The translations under genes were made by a program, and so were the position numbers. The notes beneath the pieces are model-generated. The model saw nothing but the letters and a program-made list of their open reading frames with translations. It searched no databases and was not told the DNA's origin. Below are positions 18,239 through 37,156 of a DNA stretch of 64,000 nucleotides, one piece after another. Within the stretch, counting starts at the first letter, position 1. The number at the start of each line of letters is the position of its first letter. The DNA lies in NCBI RefSeq assembly GCF_056746865.1, contig NZ_CM163382.1. One strand, written 5' to 3'.

Positions 18239-18815
18239 GATAACGGTTCATGTATCCCCTGAGCTGACAGTGTACCGGGTATATTAAGCGTAACCGACAG
18301 GTTCTCCTTCATACCATATTAAATTTTTCCAGGTATTGCCGCTGCCTTATTTCGTCCCATACAGGAAAACTCGTCTGGGTTTCTGACAAATACGCGAAAC
18401 TCACAGCCCCTCAATATCAACCACACGCTGTAAGCCGGTAATACCTGAAAATCAGCCTATTACCGCCCGCGCCTCCGTTACCGAACGCTCAGGTGACCAG
18501 ACTGAAGCCCTGCACGCACTCGTAAAGTTTGCGGTCAGTTCCGTCAGTCGGTGGGCAACCGCAGAGTTACGGGCTTCCAGGTCCACAGGAGTGAGTCTAT
18601 AACGCGTGTGAAAAATCATTTTTTCTGGCGTTGACAGAACACATTACAGGCTGCCACTTACCCGGTGTCCCGCAATACAGCCTTAGTGTTCCGTTATCGG
18701 GGATCCGGACGCACCGCAACAACCGGGGAAGTATTTCTGGTTTAGAGCTGTGTCAAGAGGGATTTCTCAGCCCCTCACTCACCGGCTCAGTCTCAGAGCA
18801 GGAGTGGATTTGCCC

Positions 18816-19721
18816 CTATATTTCCAGACACCTGTTATCACTTAACCCATTACTGGCCCGCTGCCGTAGATATTCCCGTGGCGAGCGATAACCCAGTGCA
18901 CTATGCGGATGCCATTCGTTATAATGCTCGAACGCCTCTGCAAGGTTCTTTGCTGCCGTTAACCCGTCTGGTTTAGGCATGATACTGATGTAGTCACGCT
19001 TTATCGTTTTCACGAAGCTCTCTGCTATGCCGTTACTCTCCGGACTCCGCACCGCCGTGTTCTTCGGTTCAAGCCCCAACATCCGGGCAAACTGCCGTGT
19101 TTCATTAGCCCGGTAGCATGAACCATTATCCGTCAGCCACTCTACTGGAGACGCCGGAAGCTCGTTGCCGAAGCGGCGTTCCACCGCTCCCAGCATTACG
19201 TCCTGTACTGTTTCACTGTCGAAGCCGCCCGTAGTGACTGCCCAGTGCAGTGCCTCACGGTCACAGCAGTCCAGCGCGAACGTGACTCGCAGTTTTTCTC
19301 CGTTATCACAGCGGAACTCGAACCCGTCAGAGCACCATCGTTGATTGCTTTCTTTCACGGCCACTTTGCCAGTATGTGCCCGTTTCGATGGCGGTACAGC
19401 GGTTTTTCGCTCAAGCAACAGCGCATTCTGGCGCATGATCCGGTAAACACGTTTGGCATTGATCGCAGGCATACCATCAAGTTCGGCCTGTCTGCGAAGC
19501 AGCGCCCATACCCGACGATAACCATACGTGGGCAGCTCTCCGATAACATGGTGTATACGGAGAAGCACATCCGTATCATCTGAGTGACGGCTGCGGCGAC
19601 CATCTTTCCAGTCATCGGTTCGTCTGAGAATGACGTGCAACTGCGCACGCGACACCCGGAGACAACGGCTGACTAAGCTTACTCCCCATCCCCGGGCAAT
19701 AAGGGCGCGTGCGCTATCCAC
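18816..19721 (-). CDS. insD: IS2 transposase OrfB
   Basis: 301 aa DDE integrase core. Confidence 0.85.
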
Positions 19722-20044
19722 TTTTTTGCACGCCCGTATTCAACGGCTTCTTTAAGGAGTTCATTTTCCATCGTTTTTTTGCCGAGCAGGCGCTGGAGTT
19801 CTTTAATCTGCTTCATGGCAGCAGCAAGTTCAGAGGCAGGAACGACCTGCTCTCCTGCGGCCACAGCAGTAAGACTTCCCTCCTGGTATTGCTTGCGCCA
19901 GAGAAATAACTGGCTGGCTGCCACACCGTGTTGCCGGGCAACAAGGGAGACCGTCATTCCCGGTTCAAAACTCTGCTGAACAATAGCGATCTTTTCCTGT
20001 GTAGTACGCCGTCTGCGTTTCTCCGGTCCTAAGACATCAATCAT
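19679..20044 (-). CDS. insC: IS2 OrfA
   Basis: 121 aa from [18 protein letters not shown]...; HTH protein. Confidence 0.85.
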
Positions 20045-20696
20045 CTGCTCTCCAATGACTAGTCTAAAAACTAGTATTAAGACTATCACTTATTTAAGTG
20101 ATATTGGTTGTCTGGAGATTCAGGGGGCCAGTCTAGGAGCATTAATACGCTCAGTTCATGTCTTATACAGGAATGGGCACAGGGGGAGCTGGCGTGTCAC
20201 TGCTGATTTTACGCATCAGCGTTCATGTATTTGCACTCTGATACAGAATGCTTCACAGCGCTCTGTTACCGGAGAGATTTACTCTCTTAGCTTACTCTGG
20301 CAAATCCTTTACGTTACTCTCTGATGACTTCTTATATTTATAATACCAATCAGACAGCCTTATCCCATCGGTGATATCAGTCTCCTCCTCGCCAGGAACG
20401 GGCTGACTCACTGTAACCACCTCCGAAAACAACTCTGCAATTATCAGAACGCTAGTTTTCCCCTTGTCTCACGAAAGTCCTCCCTCCTTTATCGCGCGTG
20501 CGTGCGGAAGCATCTTTTCGCAACAACCCCCCGGGATTCCGCTACGGCTCTGCCATCGCAATCCCCCCGTTTATCTCCGGACAGCCACATTCCCGATTAT
20601 TTTTTACGTTTCTCCCCGGTTGTTATGCCAGTGAAGGTGGCGCGCTGTTTTCATGACCACACCGGCTGGTTTAACAACATCCGGAGGAACATTCTC

Positions 20697-22168
<1,472 letters not shown>

Positions 22169-30261: not shown

Positions 30262-30331
30262 TAATCAGGTCACTCTCCTTCAGGCCCCGGTCATCATGAC
30301 CGGGGCTTTTTACTTTCAGGGAGCAACAGAT

Positions 30332-30490
30332 ATGCCGGGTTGTACATCACGTTTATTGCCCGAAGGCCCTTTCTCACGCGAACAGGCTGTTGCCGTCAAA
30401 ACAGCTTACCGCAATGTGTTTACTGAAGATGACCAGGGAACATATTCCCGGCTGGTTATCCGTAATGCTGAAGGTCAGTTGCGCTGGTGA
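30332..30490 (+). CDS. DUF905-like small protein (possibly truncated)
   Basis: 52 aa ...[44 protein letters not shown]; family-like sequence continues past the TGA (CWNTA*). Confidence 0.45.
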
Positions 30491-30644
30491 TGCTGGAACA
30501 CAGCTTAATACTCAGCTCGCCAGTTAAGGGCTTCTCAGACAATAAACGTCATTCATTTCATCTGTCAGGCCGCGTCTTCTCCGGGAGACGTGGCTTTTTC
30601 ATTTATTACACCAGTAAATCGTAACCACCGATAAGGAGCAAATT

Positions 30645-33054: not shown

Positions 33055-33216
33055 TGTTCCGTCACCCGGAAAACGAGTACGACTGGCAGAGCTCAGACGC
33101 CGCTGTGGATGAGGTCCTGCTCATCAACGAATACACCTTTACCGAAGCCGGTCTGCGCGCCGGCTGACCCGTCATCGTTAAACTATCATTCACCGATTTT
33201 CTGTGAGGATTTTATC

Positions 33217-33585
33217 GTGTCAGACACACTTTCCGGGACAACGCATCCCGATGACAATGACGACCATCCCTGGTGGGGACTACCCTGCACAGTGACGCCC
33301 TGTTTCGGCGCCCGTCTGGTGCAGGAGGGTAACCGGTTGCATTACCTTGCCGACCGTGCCGGTATCAGAGGCCGGTTCAGAGATGCGGATGCGTACCCTC
33401 TGGACCAGGCCTTTCCGCTGCTGATGAAACAACTGAAATTAATGCTCACCAGTGGTGAACTGAATCCCCGCCATCAGCATACCGTGACACTGTATGCGAA
33501 GGGGCTGACCTGTGAAGCCGACACCCTCGGCTCCTGTGGTTACGTTTATCTGGCTGTTTATCCGACACCTGAAACGAAAAAGTAA
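33217..33585 (+). CDS. cbeA: CbeA/YeeU-family antitoxin
   Basis: 122 aa from GTG (SDTLSGTTHPDDNDDHPWWGLPCTVTPCFGARLVQEG...); GAGGA SD. Confidence 0.75.
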   Translation: MSDTLSGTTHPDDNDDHPWWGLPCTVTPCFGARLVQEGNRLHYLADRAGIRGRFRDADAYPLDQAFPLLMKQLKLMLTSGELNPRHQHTVTLYAKGLTCEADTLGSCGYVYLAVYPTPETKK

Positions 33586-33674
33586 ACCACCAGAATAACC
33601 TTCTGCTCCGGCCTGGTGTTTTCACCACGCCACTGTCCCATTTTTTATCTCTGCATATCAGGAAAATCTTCAGT

Positions 33675-33733
33675 ATGAAAACATTACCCGACACGCATGT
33701 ACGGGAGGTATCGTGCTGCCCGTCTCCAGTCAC
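33675..33733 (+). pseudogene. cbtA: cbtA/yeeV-family toxin gene, 5' fragment, disrupted by IS21-family insertion
   Basis: MKTLPDTHVREVSCCPSPVT then the IS end; the reading frame resumes after the IS at 36371 (..TIWQTLLTRLLDQH) and then diverges from the family. Confidence 0.7.
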
Positions 33734-33832
33734 TGCGTATTCCGCTCTATTCGATCACGGATTGGCATCGAAGTCCGATCAGCGATTCGCATCCATTCGA
33801 TCAACCGGGAACTTAACTTTTTCTACCGCTTT

Positions 33833-34588
33833 TTAACGCGTTTTTTCGCTGCTTTCCACTACCGGGGGATTTTTCCTCAGTGACTCTCCCTGAAGGACCA
33901 CCCGGTGTGAGTTATGTACCAGTCTGTCCAGGATGGCATCTGCTGTTGTTGGGTTCTCCATCAGACCATGCCATTTATCTACCGGGAACTGGCTTACCAC
34001 TATCGTGCTGCTTTGTCCGTAACGATCCTCTATGAGCTCCAGAAGGTCATTACACTGGGCGTTACTTAACTGTTCCAGCCCCAGATCGTCCAGGATTAGA
34101 ACCTGTATTTTTTGCAACTGTTTCAGATATTTCAGCCAGCTGCCATCAACACGTCCCTGAGCCAGTTGTTCCAGTAATCGCCCGGTTCTACAGTACCGGA
34201 CGCTGTGTTTCTGTCGACATGCCTGTTCGCCCAGCGCATTGGCTATCCAGCTCTTGCCACATCCTGTCGGACCGGTTATCAGCAGGTTTTTCCTGTGGGT
34301 TATGTAGTGGCCGTTCAGCAGTTCTCTCATCTGTTCAGCCCGCAGACCTCTTGAGGCCGGATAGCGCAGCCCTTCCGGTGTTGCCTGGTATTTCAGGCCG
34401 GCATTTTTTCTCAACCGTGCCACACGGCTGTTTTCCCTGCTCAGAAGCTCGTCATCAACCAGCAGCGTCAGCCTTTCCTCGAACGACAGTTCGTCGTAGG
34501 TCTGAGGCGTTTCCCGCTGCCGTATCAGGCTCCCGGCCATCGCCGGGAGTTTCAGTTGGGTCAGTTTGTTTAACAGGTTATCACTCAT
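33833..34588 (-). CDS. istB: IS21-family helper ATPase IstB
   Basis: 251 aa from MSDNLLNKLTQLKLP...; Walker A GPTGCGKS. Confidence 0.85.
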   Translation of the reverse strand: MSDNLLNKLTQLKLPAMAGSLIRQRETPQTYDELSFEERLTLLVDDELLSRENSRVARLRKNAGLKYQATPEGLRYPASRGLRAEQMRELLNGHYITHRKNLLITGPTGCGKSWIANALGEQACRQKHSVRYCRTGRLLEQLAQGRVDGSWLKYLKQLQKIQVLILDDLGLEQLSNAQCNDLLELIEDRYGQSSTIVVSQFPVDKWHGLMENPTTADAILDRLVHNSHRVVLQGESLRKNPPVVESSEKTR

Positions 34589-34604
34589 ACTGTTGTTCCT
34601 TCTG

Positions 34605-36140
34605 TCAGTGGTAGTAGCCCGGACCACGCAGGTTTTCATGCTCTGAAGCATATGCCGGATGTTGTTCGCCCTGGCGGGATAATGGAAGCTCCAGGTTCTC
34701 CCGATGGTGACGCAGCAGATTGTCGATAAAGCGTCTGTCAGGGGCGTTATAGTGCAGGGCAACGTAACAGGCCTTTTCCAGCCGTTCCGGGCCGTATTTT
34801 TTCTGAAGTGCCAGCAGCCCCAGAACTGCACGATAAGCCAGTTCCGGATGGGGTTTTGCCTTCAGCATGGATTCAACCACCCGGCCTGTGGACGGGCCCG
34901 TACGTTTTCCCTGCTCGATCAGGCGTTCCGGTGTCCATGTCCCGTGCTGCCGGTGGCGCTCTGGCATGTGAAGCGGATTGGTTGTGTGTTTATATTCATG
35001 TGTGCTGCGCGGATGTTGCGCCACACACTGCCCCTTGTGCCAGAGCTGTACCACCGACTGCCCCGCCTTCAGTGACAGACGCTGACCGACCAGTTCGTGT
35101 GGAACGGAGTACCAGTGACGGGCATATTCAACGTGGTAGTCAGGGCCAACCTTCACAGCTTTGTATTCCGTGTATTCATAAGGTGCCAGAGGCAGCGGAG
35201 AGAGTGCTGGCGCATCCAGTATGCGGAAGCGTTCTGCACGGGTTTGATTGCCGTACCCCTTCATTGGCCGGTTATTCATGTCTGTCAGTAACTCCCTAAG
35301 GCGCGCATTCAGCGCCCTGAGCGTGTGGAAGGTTTCATTACGGATGCGGGCAAGAAGCCATCGTTCGACGATGAGGACGCCGTTTTCTGCTTTTGGTTTA
35401 TCTTTAGGTTTGCGTGGTCGGGCCGGGATGATAACCGTGCCATAGTGCTCAGCCAGTGCCTGATAACTGTCGTTGATGACAGGCTCATATCGATCGGCCT
35501 TTTTCACTGCGCTTCTGAGGTTATCGGGGATGAGCAGCTTCGGTACGCCGCCCAGGAAGGTCAGGCAACGGCTGTGGGCATTTAACCATGACATCATGTC
35601 CTGACCTTCGCACGCTTCAACGTAGGTATAGTTGGACGCCCCCATTACGGCCACGAAGATTGCCACGCGGCGTATCTCACCGGTGTCCGGATTAATAACA
35701 GGAACCGTAGGACCACAGAAGTCGATAAAAAGCTTTTCGCCGGCACGATGCTCCTGGCGCATGGAGAGACGTCGCGTTTTTTTCCACTCCCGGTAGCAAC
35801 GGCAGAAGTGCGAGTATCCCATCGCTTTGTTACCCGCCTGTGCCTTGTATTCCATCCACAACAGTTGCCGCGTCACACCTGGTTTTCTCATTTCCGTATC
35901 GAGGTACAACATGTCAGGCATTACAAGCTCTGATGCAAAGGTGTCTTTGGGCGGAAAAATGAGTTTCTCCAGCGTGTCATGGGATATATCAGCAGGTAAT
36001 GGCCATGACAGAGAAGAGGCTTTGAAGCGGGCAAGAACCTCAAAAACGGTTGAGGCGCTGATGTGTAACGTCAGTCCGATACAACGGTTAGTCAGCTTCT
36101 TGTCGAACTTGAGCTGAAGAATCTTAAAACAGGTTTCCAT
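34605..36140 (-). CDS. istA: IS21-family transposase IstA
   Basis: 511 aa from METCFKILQLKF...; HTH plus DDE core; AGGAG SD. Confidence 0.85.
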   Translation of the reverse strand: METCFKILQLKFDKKLTNRCIGLTLHISASTVFEVLARFKASSLSWPLPADISHDTLEKLIFPPKDTFASELVMPDMLYLDTEMRKPGVTRQLLWMEYKAQAGNKAMGYSHFCRCYREWKKTRRLSMRQEHRAGEKLFIDFCGPTVPVINPDTGEIRRVAIFVAVMGASNYTYVEACEGQDMMSWLNAHSRCLTFLGGVPKLLIPDNLRSAVKKADRYEPVINDSYQALAEHYGTVIIPARPRKPKDKPKAENGVLIVERWLLARIRNETFHTLRALNARLRELLTDMNNRPMKGYGNQTRAERFRILDAPALSPLPLAPYEYTEYKAVKVGPDYHVEYARHWYSVPHELVGQRLSLKAGQSVVQLWHKGQCVAQHPRSTHEYKHTTNPLHMPERHRQHGTWTPERLIEQGKRTGPSTGRVVESMLKAKPHPELAYRAVLGLLALQKKYGPERLEKACYVALHYNAPDRRFIDNLLRHHRENLELPLSRQGEQHPAYASEHENLRGPGYYH

Positions 36141-36686
36141 AGTGCTCCTGGATTTTCTCTTTCTGGACATTGACGTCTCCACTGGTTTAAACACGGCAAT
36201 GGAGACTGTGGTGAAAAGAGTTAATTCCCGGAGTGACTGGCAGGATGCCAATCAATGATCGGAAGCATGCCAAATCGTGATCGATTGTGATGCCAAACTG
36301 TGATCGGAGATGGATGCCAAATCATGATCGATTCGAATGCCAAACTGCGATCGATTCAGATGCCATTTTGCAGTCACCATCTGGCAGACACTGCTCACCC
36401 GGTTACTGGACCAGCATTCCCTGATTTCCTCATCGATATCGAATAAGCACTCGTCGCAGAATTCTTTATCGAGTGAGAGCCTCTGTTCAAGGACGCTTCT
36501 TTTTTTTGTTGCAACGTGCACATCCCTTCATCTTTCCGCGCCTTTGTGACCTCGTGATTTGGGGTACATGGAAAATGGGCGTAGCAAGCCTCAGCTAGAT
36601 AACTAACCGTAATAAAAGGGCTTTTCTGCGAGCAATGTAAGAGAAGGATAACTAGGCAGGTTGCAAGAAAGATAATCGTTTTGATA

Positions 36687-36721
36687 GATCAGTTTATCGA
36701 TATTGATCGTTAGTGCCGATC
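36687..36721 (+). promoter_or_regulatory. Triple-GATC motif resembling the Ag43 Dam/OxyR switch
   Basis: GATC at about 36687, 36705, 36718 (spacing 18 and 13 bp, versus 19 and 13 upstream of flu) within ATCGAT-rich sequence about 440 bp upstream of mtnK. Confidence 0.3.
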
Positions 36722-37156
36722 GATAAGAAGTGCGGAAACGTTAGACTCACCTCTGTTGCTCCATCATGATGATGGGGCTGTTGGCCCTCGAATCTATCTG
36801 TCTATTAGCATCGGCATGACAAACACCATTTGTTTCCACAACAAAAGACAATAGAAAAGTACATATGTACAAAAAGTGTGATTTATTCTGTCACTTCAGT
36901 ACTTCCTTTCGCCTAAGTTTGCCCGTAATAATTCCCCGTGCAGTACTATTGTTGCGACATAACAACATGAATTACATGGTAATAATAGATGTTTTCCTCT
37001 GCTGATTCCTGTAAGGATCATGACTCCATACGACATCATTTTTAATTTTATACAGTTCAAAAAATCTACATGTGTCACAAATAATTTTACATTTGATAAT
37101 GTATAGTTGTCACATGACAAGTTGATTATCATTCTGTGTAGACAAGGAGAACTGTT

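Follow-up and report, generated by a model that had tools for sequence, protein, structure and literature searches.

An IS21-family element inserted into an already truncated cbtA remnant of a CP4-like island in Escherichia coli

When an insertion sequence (IS) lies inside a toxin gene and the neighbouring antitoxin gene is intact, did the IS silence the toxin, or did it enter a gene that was already dead? The question is raised by a locus in the 64,000-nucleotide stretch of contig NZ_CM163382.1 (NCBI RefSeq assembly GCF_056746865.1) analysed here and called the window, in which an IS21-family element splits a cbtA-like frame next to the antitoxin gene cbeA. A preliminary description of this DNA had implied that the insertion destroyed the toxin gene and thereby orphaned the antitoxin. 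The present analysis leads to a different order of events: very probably, a known ISSso4-type element of the IS21 family transposed recently, and in this strain only, into a pre-existing, dead cbtA remnant. The features of the locus are the following.

33217..33585, plus strand: intact gene of the cbeA/yeeU family encoding a type IV antitoxin of 122 amino acids (Pfam PF06154, E 3.8e-53, profile positions 1-100 of 101)
33675..33733, plus strand: 5' part of the cbtA-family stub, comprising codons 1-19 and the first two bases of codon 20 (translation of the open reading frame, ORF)
33729..33733, no strand: left copy of the target duplication, GTCAC (flanks compared with eight independent copies of the element; inserted length 2,644 = 2,639 + 5)
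33734..36372, genes on the minus strand: complete IS21-family IS of 2,639 bp with termini TG...CA, 100% identical to many copies
33734..33803, no strand: IS end opposite the istA end, an imperfect terminal inverted repeat with two to three internal repeats, CGATCA...GCATC (repeat search and end alignment)
33833..34588, minus strand: istB, AAA+ helper ATPase of 251 amino acids (PF01695, 205.7 bits; NF038214, 257.8 bits, cut-off 200)
34605..36140, minus strand: istA, DDE transposase of 511 amino acids (NF033546 transpos_IS21, 285.8 bits, cut-off 160; Pfam Mu-transpos_C_2)
36244..36372, no strand: istA-proximal IS end, six GATGCCA...GATCG repeats 22-24 nt apart and a final ...TTTTGCA (repeat search)
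36373..36377, no strand: right copy of the target duplication, GTCAC (flanks compared with the eight copies; inserted length compared with the empty site)
36378..36418, plus strand: 3' part of the cbtA stub, from the end of codon 20 to His33, IWQTLLTRLLDQH (translation of the joined flanks and family comparison)
36417..36418, no strand: older truncation junction with a 2-nt TT overlap (ungapped comparison with K-12 cbtA, the intact Ecol_316 allele and Nissle)

The assignment to the IS21 family, already made in the preliminary description, is borne out by the profile matches of both proteins and by the architecture of the element. A DDE transposase gene with an rve core, istA, is followed by istB on the same strand; the Pfam rve match of IstA reaches 32.1 bits, slightly under the gathering cut-off of 32.6 bits. 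The termini are 5'-TG...CA-3' and lie in long, imperfectly inverted ends with repeated motifs (TGCGTATT...TTTTGCA), and a short direct duplication of the target (5 bp here, with an exact empty site) flanks the element. At the istA end the terminal motif starts at 36244, 36265, 36289, 36313, 36335 and 36359; such multiple terminal repeats are typical of IS21-family elements. The coordinates of istA and istB were taken from the annotation of identical copies by the Prokaryotic Genome Annotation Pipeline (PGAP), where the proteins are WP_023181050.1 and WP_001282653.1, respectively. The window contains a single copy of the 2,639-bp element. Both genes are intact and do not differ from those of many other copies, a finding compatible with an element that is able to transpose.

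The frame that opens at 33675 reads MKTLPDTHVREVSCCPSPVT up to the point where foreign sequence begins, and translation also confirmed that it resumes beyond the element, as had been described. Joining the flanks restores ...PSPVTIWQ..., again in agreement with the earlier reading, and the IS-free stub agrees in all 33 residues with the start of the intact 124-residue protein WP_000854765.1. The stub comprises 99 nt, so that 91 of the 124 codons (34-124) are gone. In terms of the Pfam family CbtA_toxin (PF06755), the IS-free stub covers profile positions 1-34 of 112, the intact allele covers 1-112, and the present, interrupted ORF matches positions 1-28 with 24.8 bits, slightly under the 25-bit cut-off; the locus lacks a complete toxin domain, which would span about 112 profile positions and contain the F65 region. 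In K-12 CbtA, F65 is needed for the binding of FtsZ (PMC5624674). With the F65-containing region gone and the PF06755 match only partial, the stub is not a toxin. It may be added that codon 15 of the stub (33717-33719) encodes Cys, as does codon 15 of the intact WP_000854765.1, and that an engineered R15C exchange in K-12 CbtA abolishes the binding of MreB (PMC5624674).

The preliminary description had noted that the match to the toxin family stops after LLDQH and had postulated a second lesion. Comparisons with K-12 cbtA and with the WP_000854765.1 allele bear this out and map the lesion. In the genome Ecol_316 an intact WP_000854765.1 gene adjoins a cbeA that is identical to that of the window; the DNA identity with the stub continues to ...CAGCATT (36418) and then ends, and the comparison with K-12 cbtA stops at the same point. 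Two genes that come after cbtA in Ecol_316, those for DUF5983 and DUF957, are also missing at the join. To the right of the breakpoint, identity with Nissle begins at 36417, and the left neighbour of this sequence in Nissle is a fragment of a glycosyltransferase gene and not cbtA. As cbtA homology extends to 36418 and identity with the region upstream of mtnK starts at 36417, the two sequences overlap by 2 nt (TT) at the join, an overlap that is typical of illegitimate recombination.

Whether this truncation preceded the insertion could be decided with genomes that lack the IS. An IS-free query of 1,417 nt, in which positions 33100-33733 were joined to 36378-37160, was searched in the complete genomes of E. 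coli, and it was found at 100% identity and 100% coverage in many of them; at least 80% of the query is matched in 404 genomes. The existence of an exact empty site puts the insertion far beyond chance, and the earlier conclusion of a simple insertion that duplicated its target thus holds. Of the 5,426 complete genomes, 439 cover without interruption a 202-nt query that runs from the stub across the truncation junction, and none covers a 400-nt query placed over the left junction of the IS. In the IS-free E. coli FDAARGOS_497, PGAP calls a 99-nt "TA system toxin CbtA family protein" pseudogene, which is incomplete and lacks its C-terminus. A truncation that 439 genomes carry in the absence of the IS, together with an IS junction found in none, means that the truncation came first and the insertion later, and hence that cbeA was already an orphan antitoxin before the IS arrived. 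The insertion itself must be recent, because the element is 100% identical to many other copies.

These results have to be weighed against two other accounts of the locus. It could be argued that the IS inactivated a working cbtA and thereby orphaned the antitoxin, the downstream lesion having arisen simultaneously or later; the element does lie within the cbtA-like frame, and its removal does restore that frame. This implication of the preliminary description is highly improbable, since the same truncation at codon 33 is carried by the hundreds of complete genomes just mentioned, in which the IS is lacking, and since the identity of the element with its many copies marks it as a recent arrival. 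It is still harder to believe that the truncation at 36417/36418 is an adjacent deletion mediated by the IS21-family element itself. IS elements are known to cause adjacent deletions, and this stretch has repeatedly been struck by IS elements elsewhere (ISEc52 at 36443 in sequence type 131, ST131; IS1A at 36459 in EC0026B). However, the breakpoint is located 45 bp past the IS end and not at the end, the duplication is intact on both sides although an adjacent deletion would have destroyed it, and the junction is also found in genomes that are free of the IS.

The other point of dispute is the length of the duplication, which the preliminary description had given as 7 bp (CAGTCAC); the element would then be 2,637 bp long. 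CAGTCAC literally flanks the element on both sides (33727-33733 and 36371-36377), and a length of 7 bp would be within the 4-8 bp reported for target duplications of the IS21 family. Eight independent, identical copies of the element in unrelated targets were compared (a TPR gene, fimE, a DUF932 gene, an HlyD gene, istB of IS100, pilN, an IncI plasmid backbone and yacA/yacB). Every copy has the same ends between its flanks, TGCGTATTCCGC...TGCCATTTTGCA, with a final ...TTTTGCA, and no CA precedes the left-hand duplication in any of them. The shared end shows that positions 36371-36372 (CA) are part of the element. The left flank in the window ends with ...CCAGTCAC, the right flank starts with GTCACC, and the extra length relative to the empty site is 2,644 nt, that is, 2,639 + 5. 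From this length and the element ends it follows that the duplication is the 5-bp GTCAC, so that a 7-bp duplication is most improbable, and the CA that precedes GTCAC in the target is best read as matching the terminal CA of the element by chance. The preliminary description had let its claim depend on the position of the IS21 termini: with these mapped, the direct repeat proves to be real, as GTCAC, and the right-hand CA falls inside the element end. Among the eight copies the duplication is 6 bp long in seven and 5 bp long in one. Several of the duplicated targets of the element are alike and start with G, namely GGATAC (twice), GTCATA, GTTAC and GTCAC. A shifted IS end was also considered, as the ranking in the junction search was led by other IS copies with a few extra flank bases in common; it was rejected as the outcome of selection among thousands of matches, and the flanks of the eight copies confirm the end given here.

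Three points weigh against the reading of a recent transposition into a dead remnant. A duplication of 6 or 7 bp combined with an element that lacks its last one or two bases would have an identical appearance in the sequence; this alternative is rejected only because the terminal CA is kept in all other copies and is required by the chemistry of the family. The insertion may affect the 3' end of the cbeA transcript or the read-through into mtnK. Lastly, the source genome is seen through the window alone, so that donor copies can be named only as candidates. Nothing in the sequence speaks against the reading.

The most probable history of the locus comprises two steps that were widely separated in time. 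In the older step, an illegitimate join with a microhomology of 2 nt fused codon 33 of cbtA to a point some 740 bp upstream of mtnK. Codons 34-124 were lost together with the genes that usually follow, cbeA was left as an orphan, and the resulting state is fixed in a large E. coli lineage. Much later, and in this strain only, IstA and IstB would have inserted the element between bases 2 and 3 of codon 20 of the stub. In the IS21 family, the DDE transposase IstA, aided by the AAA+ target-capture ATPase IstB, joins the 3'-CA ends to a staggered cut in the target. By analogy, the two 3'-CA ends would here have been joined to a cut with a 5-bp stagger, and repair of the gaps would have produced the GTCAC duplication.

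The consequences of the insertion appear to be small. The stub ORF has been shortened from 76 to 53 amino acids and now ends inside the element, the coding sequence of cbeA is unchanged, and 2.6 kb have been placed between cbeA and mtnK. A scan of positions 33100-37200 for promoters and terminators yielded counts near the expectation from shuffled sequence and nothing above background. No functional gene was destroyed, and the insertion was probably neutral. As a general caution, finding an IS within a gene is no proof that the IS inactivated it; in this case, it is the IS-free relatives that reverse the apparent order.

Possible sources of the element are abundant. Full-length matches of 100% identity are found on plasmids and chromosomes of E. 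coli, Klebsiella, Salmonella and others. In a plasmid collection, 232 records contain a near-full copy (mostly from E. coli, but also from Salmonella, Shigella, Klebsiella and others), and near-full copies are also present in 225 complete genomes of E. coli. One strain, CFSAN061770, has the empty site at the locus as well as identical copies of the element on the chromosome and on a plasmid, and strains with this locus can thus contain donor copies.

Over its comparable part (positions 1-43160), the window is 100% identical to FDAARGOS_497 (NZ_CP033850.1), with 0 mismatches outside three insertions that are absent from that genome: an IS2, an IS3-family element and the IS21-family element discussed above. 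Transpositions are thus the only differences over 43 kb, which suggests, from this comparison of sequences, recent IS activity in the source strain, and the three insertions in otherwise base-identical DNA might serve as markers for tracing the strain. The IS2 occupies 18805-20134, with a flank overlap of 5 bp as predicted for a target duplication. The IS3-family element (20871-22128, 1.26 kb) has a flank overlap of 3 bp; it is matched at 100% identity in genomes that include CFSAN061770, EC31 and EP91A, where it is labelled 'ISEc31 family'. No complete E. coli genome has the IS2 and the IS3-family insertion together. The two IS2 genes and the features downstream of the truncation are as follows.

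18816-19721, minus strand: InsD-like ORF of IS2 (match to the NCBIfam IS2 model)
19679-20089, minus strand: InsC-like ORF of IS2 (match to the NCBIfam IS2 model)
36419..37156, no strand: non-island sequence upstream of mtnK, not derived from cbtA (present in 1,086 E. coli genomes; other left neighbours in Nissle and ST131)
37157..38416, plus strand: mtnK, S-methyl-5-thioribose kinase, the first intact gene downstream (TIGR01767, 522.5 bits)

The locus is surrounded by the fec operon, IS debris, Ag43 and a CP4-like module consisting of genes for DUF932, antirestriction, RadC/JAB and DUF987 and of cbeA. The cbtA remnant lies at the right-hand edge of this island module in the fec/yjhU region of the E. 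coli chromosome; no tRNA gene that could anchor the island was found within the window. Between Ag43 and the DUF932 gene, a small DUF905 gene (about 30330-30530) is annotated as frameshifted in the identical sequence of FDAARGOS_497, a further sign of decay of the module. The sequence upstream of mtnK is common to strains of phylogroup B2. The cluster from 37157 to 41321 (mtnK, mtnA, a class II aldolase and a GRP sugar transporter) is found in only about 1,086 of the 5,426 complete genomes, and its left neighbour depends on the lineage, being the cbtA stub in the window and the glycosyltransferase fragment in Nissle. In FDAARGOS_497 the cbtA pseudogene is followed by mtnK, mtnA, the aldolase gene, the GRP transporter gene, yjhU and yjhF. 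Immediately to the right of the old breakpoint, at 36418-36460, other strains show repeated IS insertion: an ST131 genome has an ISEc52-family element that abuts 36443, and in EC0026B the sequence jumps to a truncated fimB after the IS1A that abuts 36459.

Compared with known elements, the insertion is nothing new in kind. The IstB of identical copies is named "IS21-like element ISSso4 family helper ATPase" by PGAP, and the name ISSso4, an ISfinder entry from Shigella sonnei, is taken from this label. The element shares with the copies so labelled its full 2,639 bp at 100% identity, the istA-istB layout, the TG...CA ends and the repeated terminal motifs; it differs from them in the insertion site only, and an insertion at this site was found in none of the 5,426 complete E. 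coli genomes. The papers found to mention ISSso4 do no more than list it with other IS elements of Shigella sonnei and of plasmids, and none of them gives its ends or the length of its duplication. The locus thus adds one more strain-specific site to those of an already known, common enterobacterial IS, with a pseudogene remnant as the target.

The surrounding module can be compared with the type IV pair CbtA/CbeA (YeeV/YeeU) of the cryptic prophage CP4-44 and its paralogues YpjF/YfjZ and YkfI/YafW, with which it shares the gene order antirestriction, RadC/JAB, DUF987, cbeA, cbtA. The intact frame of cbeA, which the preliminary description had correctly reported as lacking its partner toxin, is full length as in K-12 and covers the PF06154 domain of the CbeA/YeeU family, and cbeA together with the start of cbtA is 87% identical to K-12 at the DNA level. 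With the first 33 amino acids identical, the cbtA allele is nearer to WP_000854765.1 than to K-12 CbtA. A functional type IV module consists of an adjacent intact toxin and antitoxin; in contrast to the CP4-44 pair, only 33 of 124 toxin codons are left in the window, the toxin ending after codon 33, and the locus is therefore a decayed CbtA/CbeA module and not a functional pair.

One further comparison concerns orphan antitoxins that act across paralogues. The window's cbeA is identical in its DNA to the allele of FDAARGOS_497 (WP_001295723.1) and to the Ecol_316 allele that is paired with an intact toxin, and overexpression of any one of CbeA, YafW and YfjZ neutralises the three K-12 toxins (PMC5371832). 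An intact gene with an allele known from a toxin pair and the published cross-neutralisation by paralogues leave room for the idea that cbeA does not simply await decay but has been kept as a useful stand-alone gene for anti-addiction or immunity against CbtA-family toxins of other CP4-like islands in the cell; this is unlikely, being compatible with the evidence but not supported by it. If cbeA did have such a protective role, the IS might matter by way of the 3' end, the stability or the read-through of the cbeA transcript. By analogy with the cross-neutralising antitoxins of K-12, the orphan cbeA could act on toxins that are encoded elsewhere in the genome.

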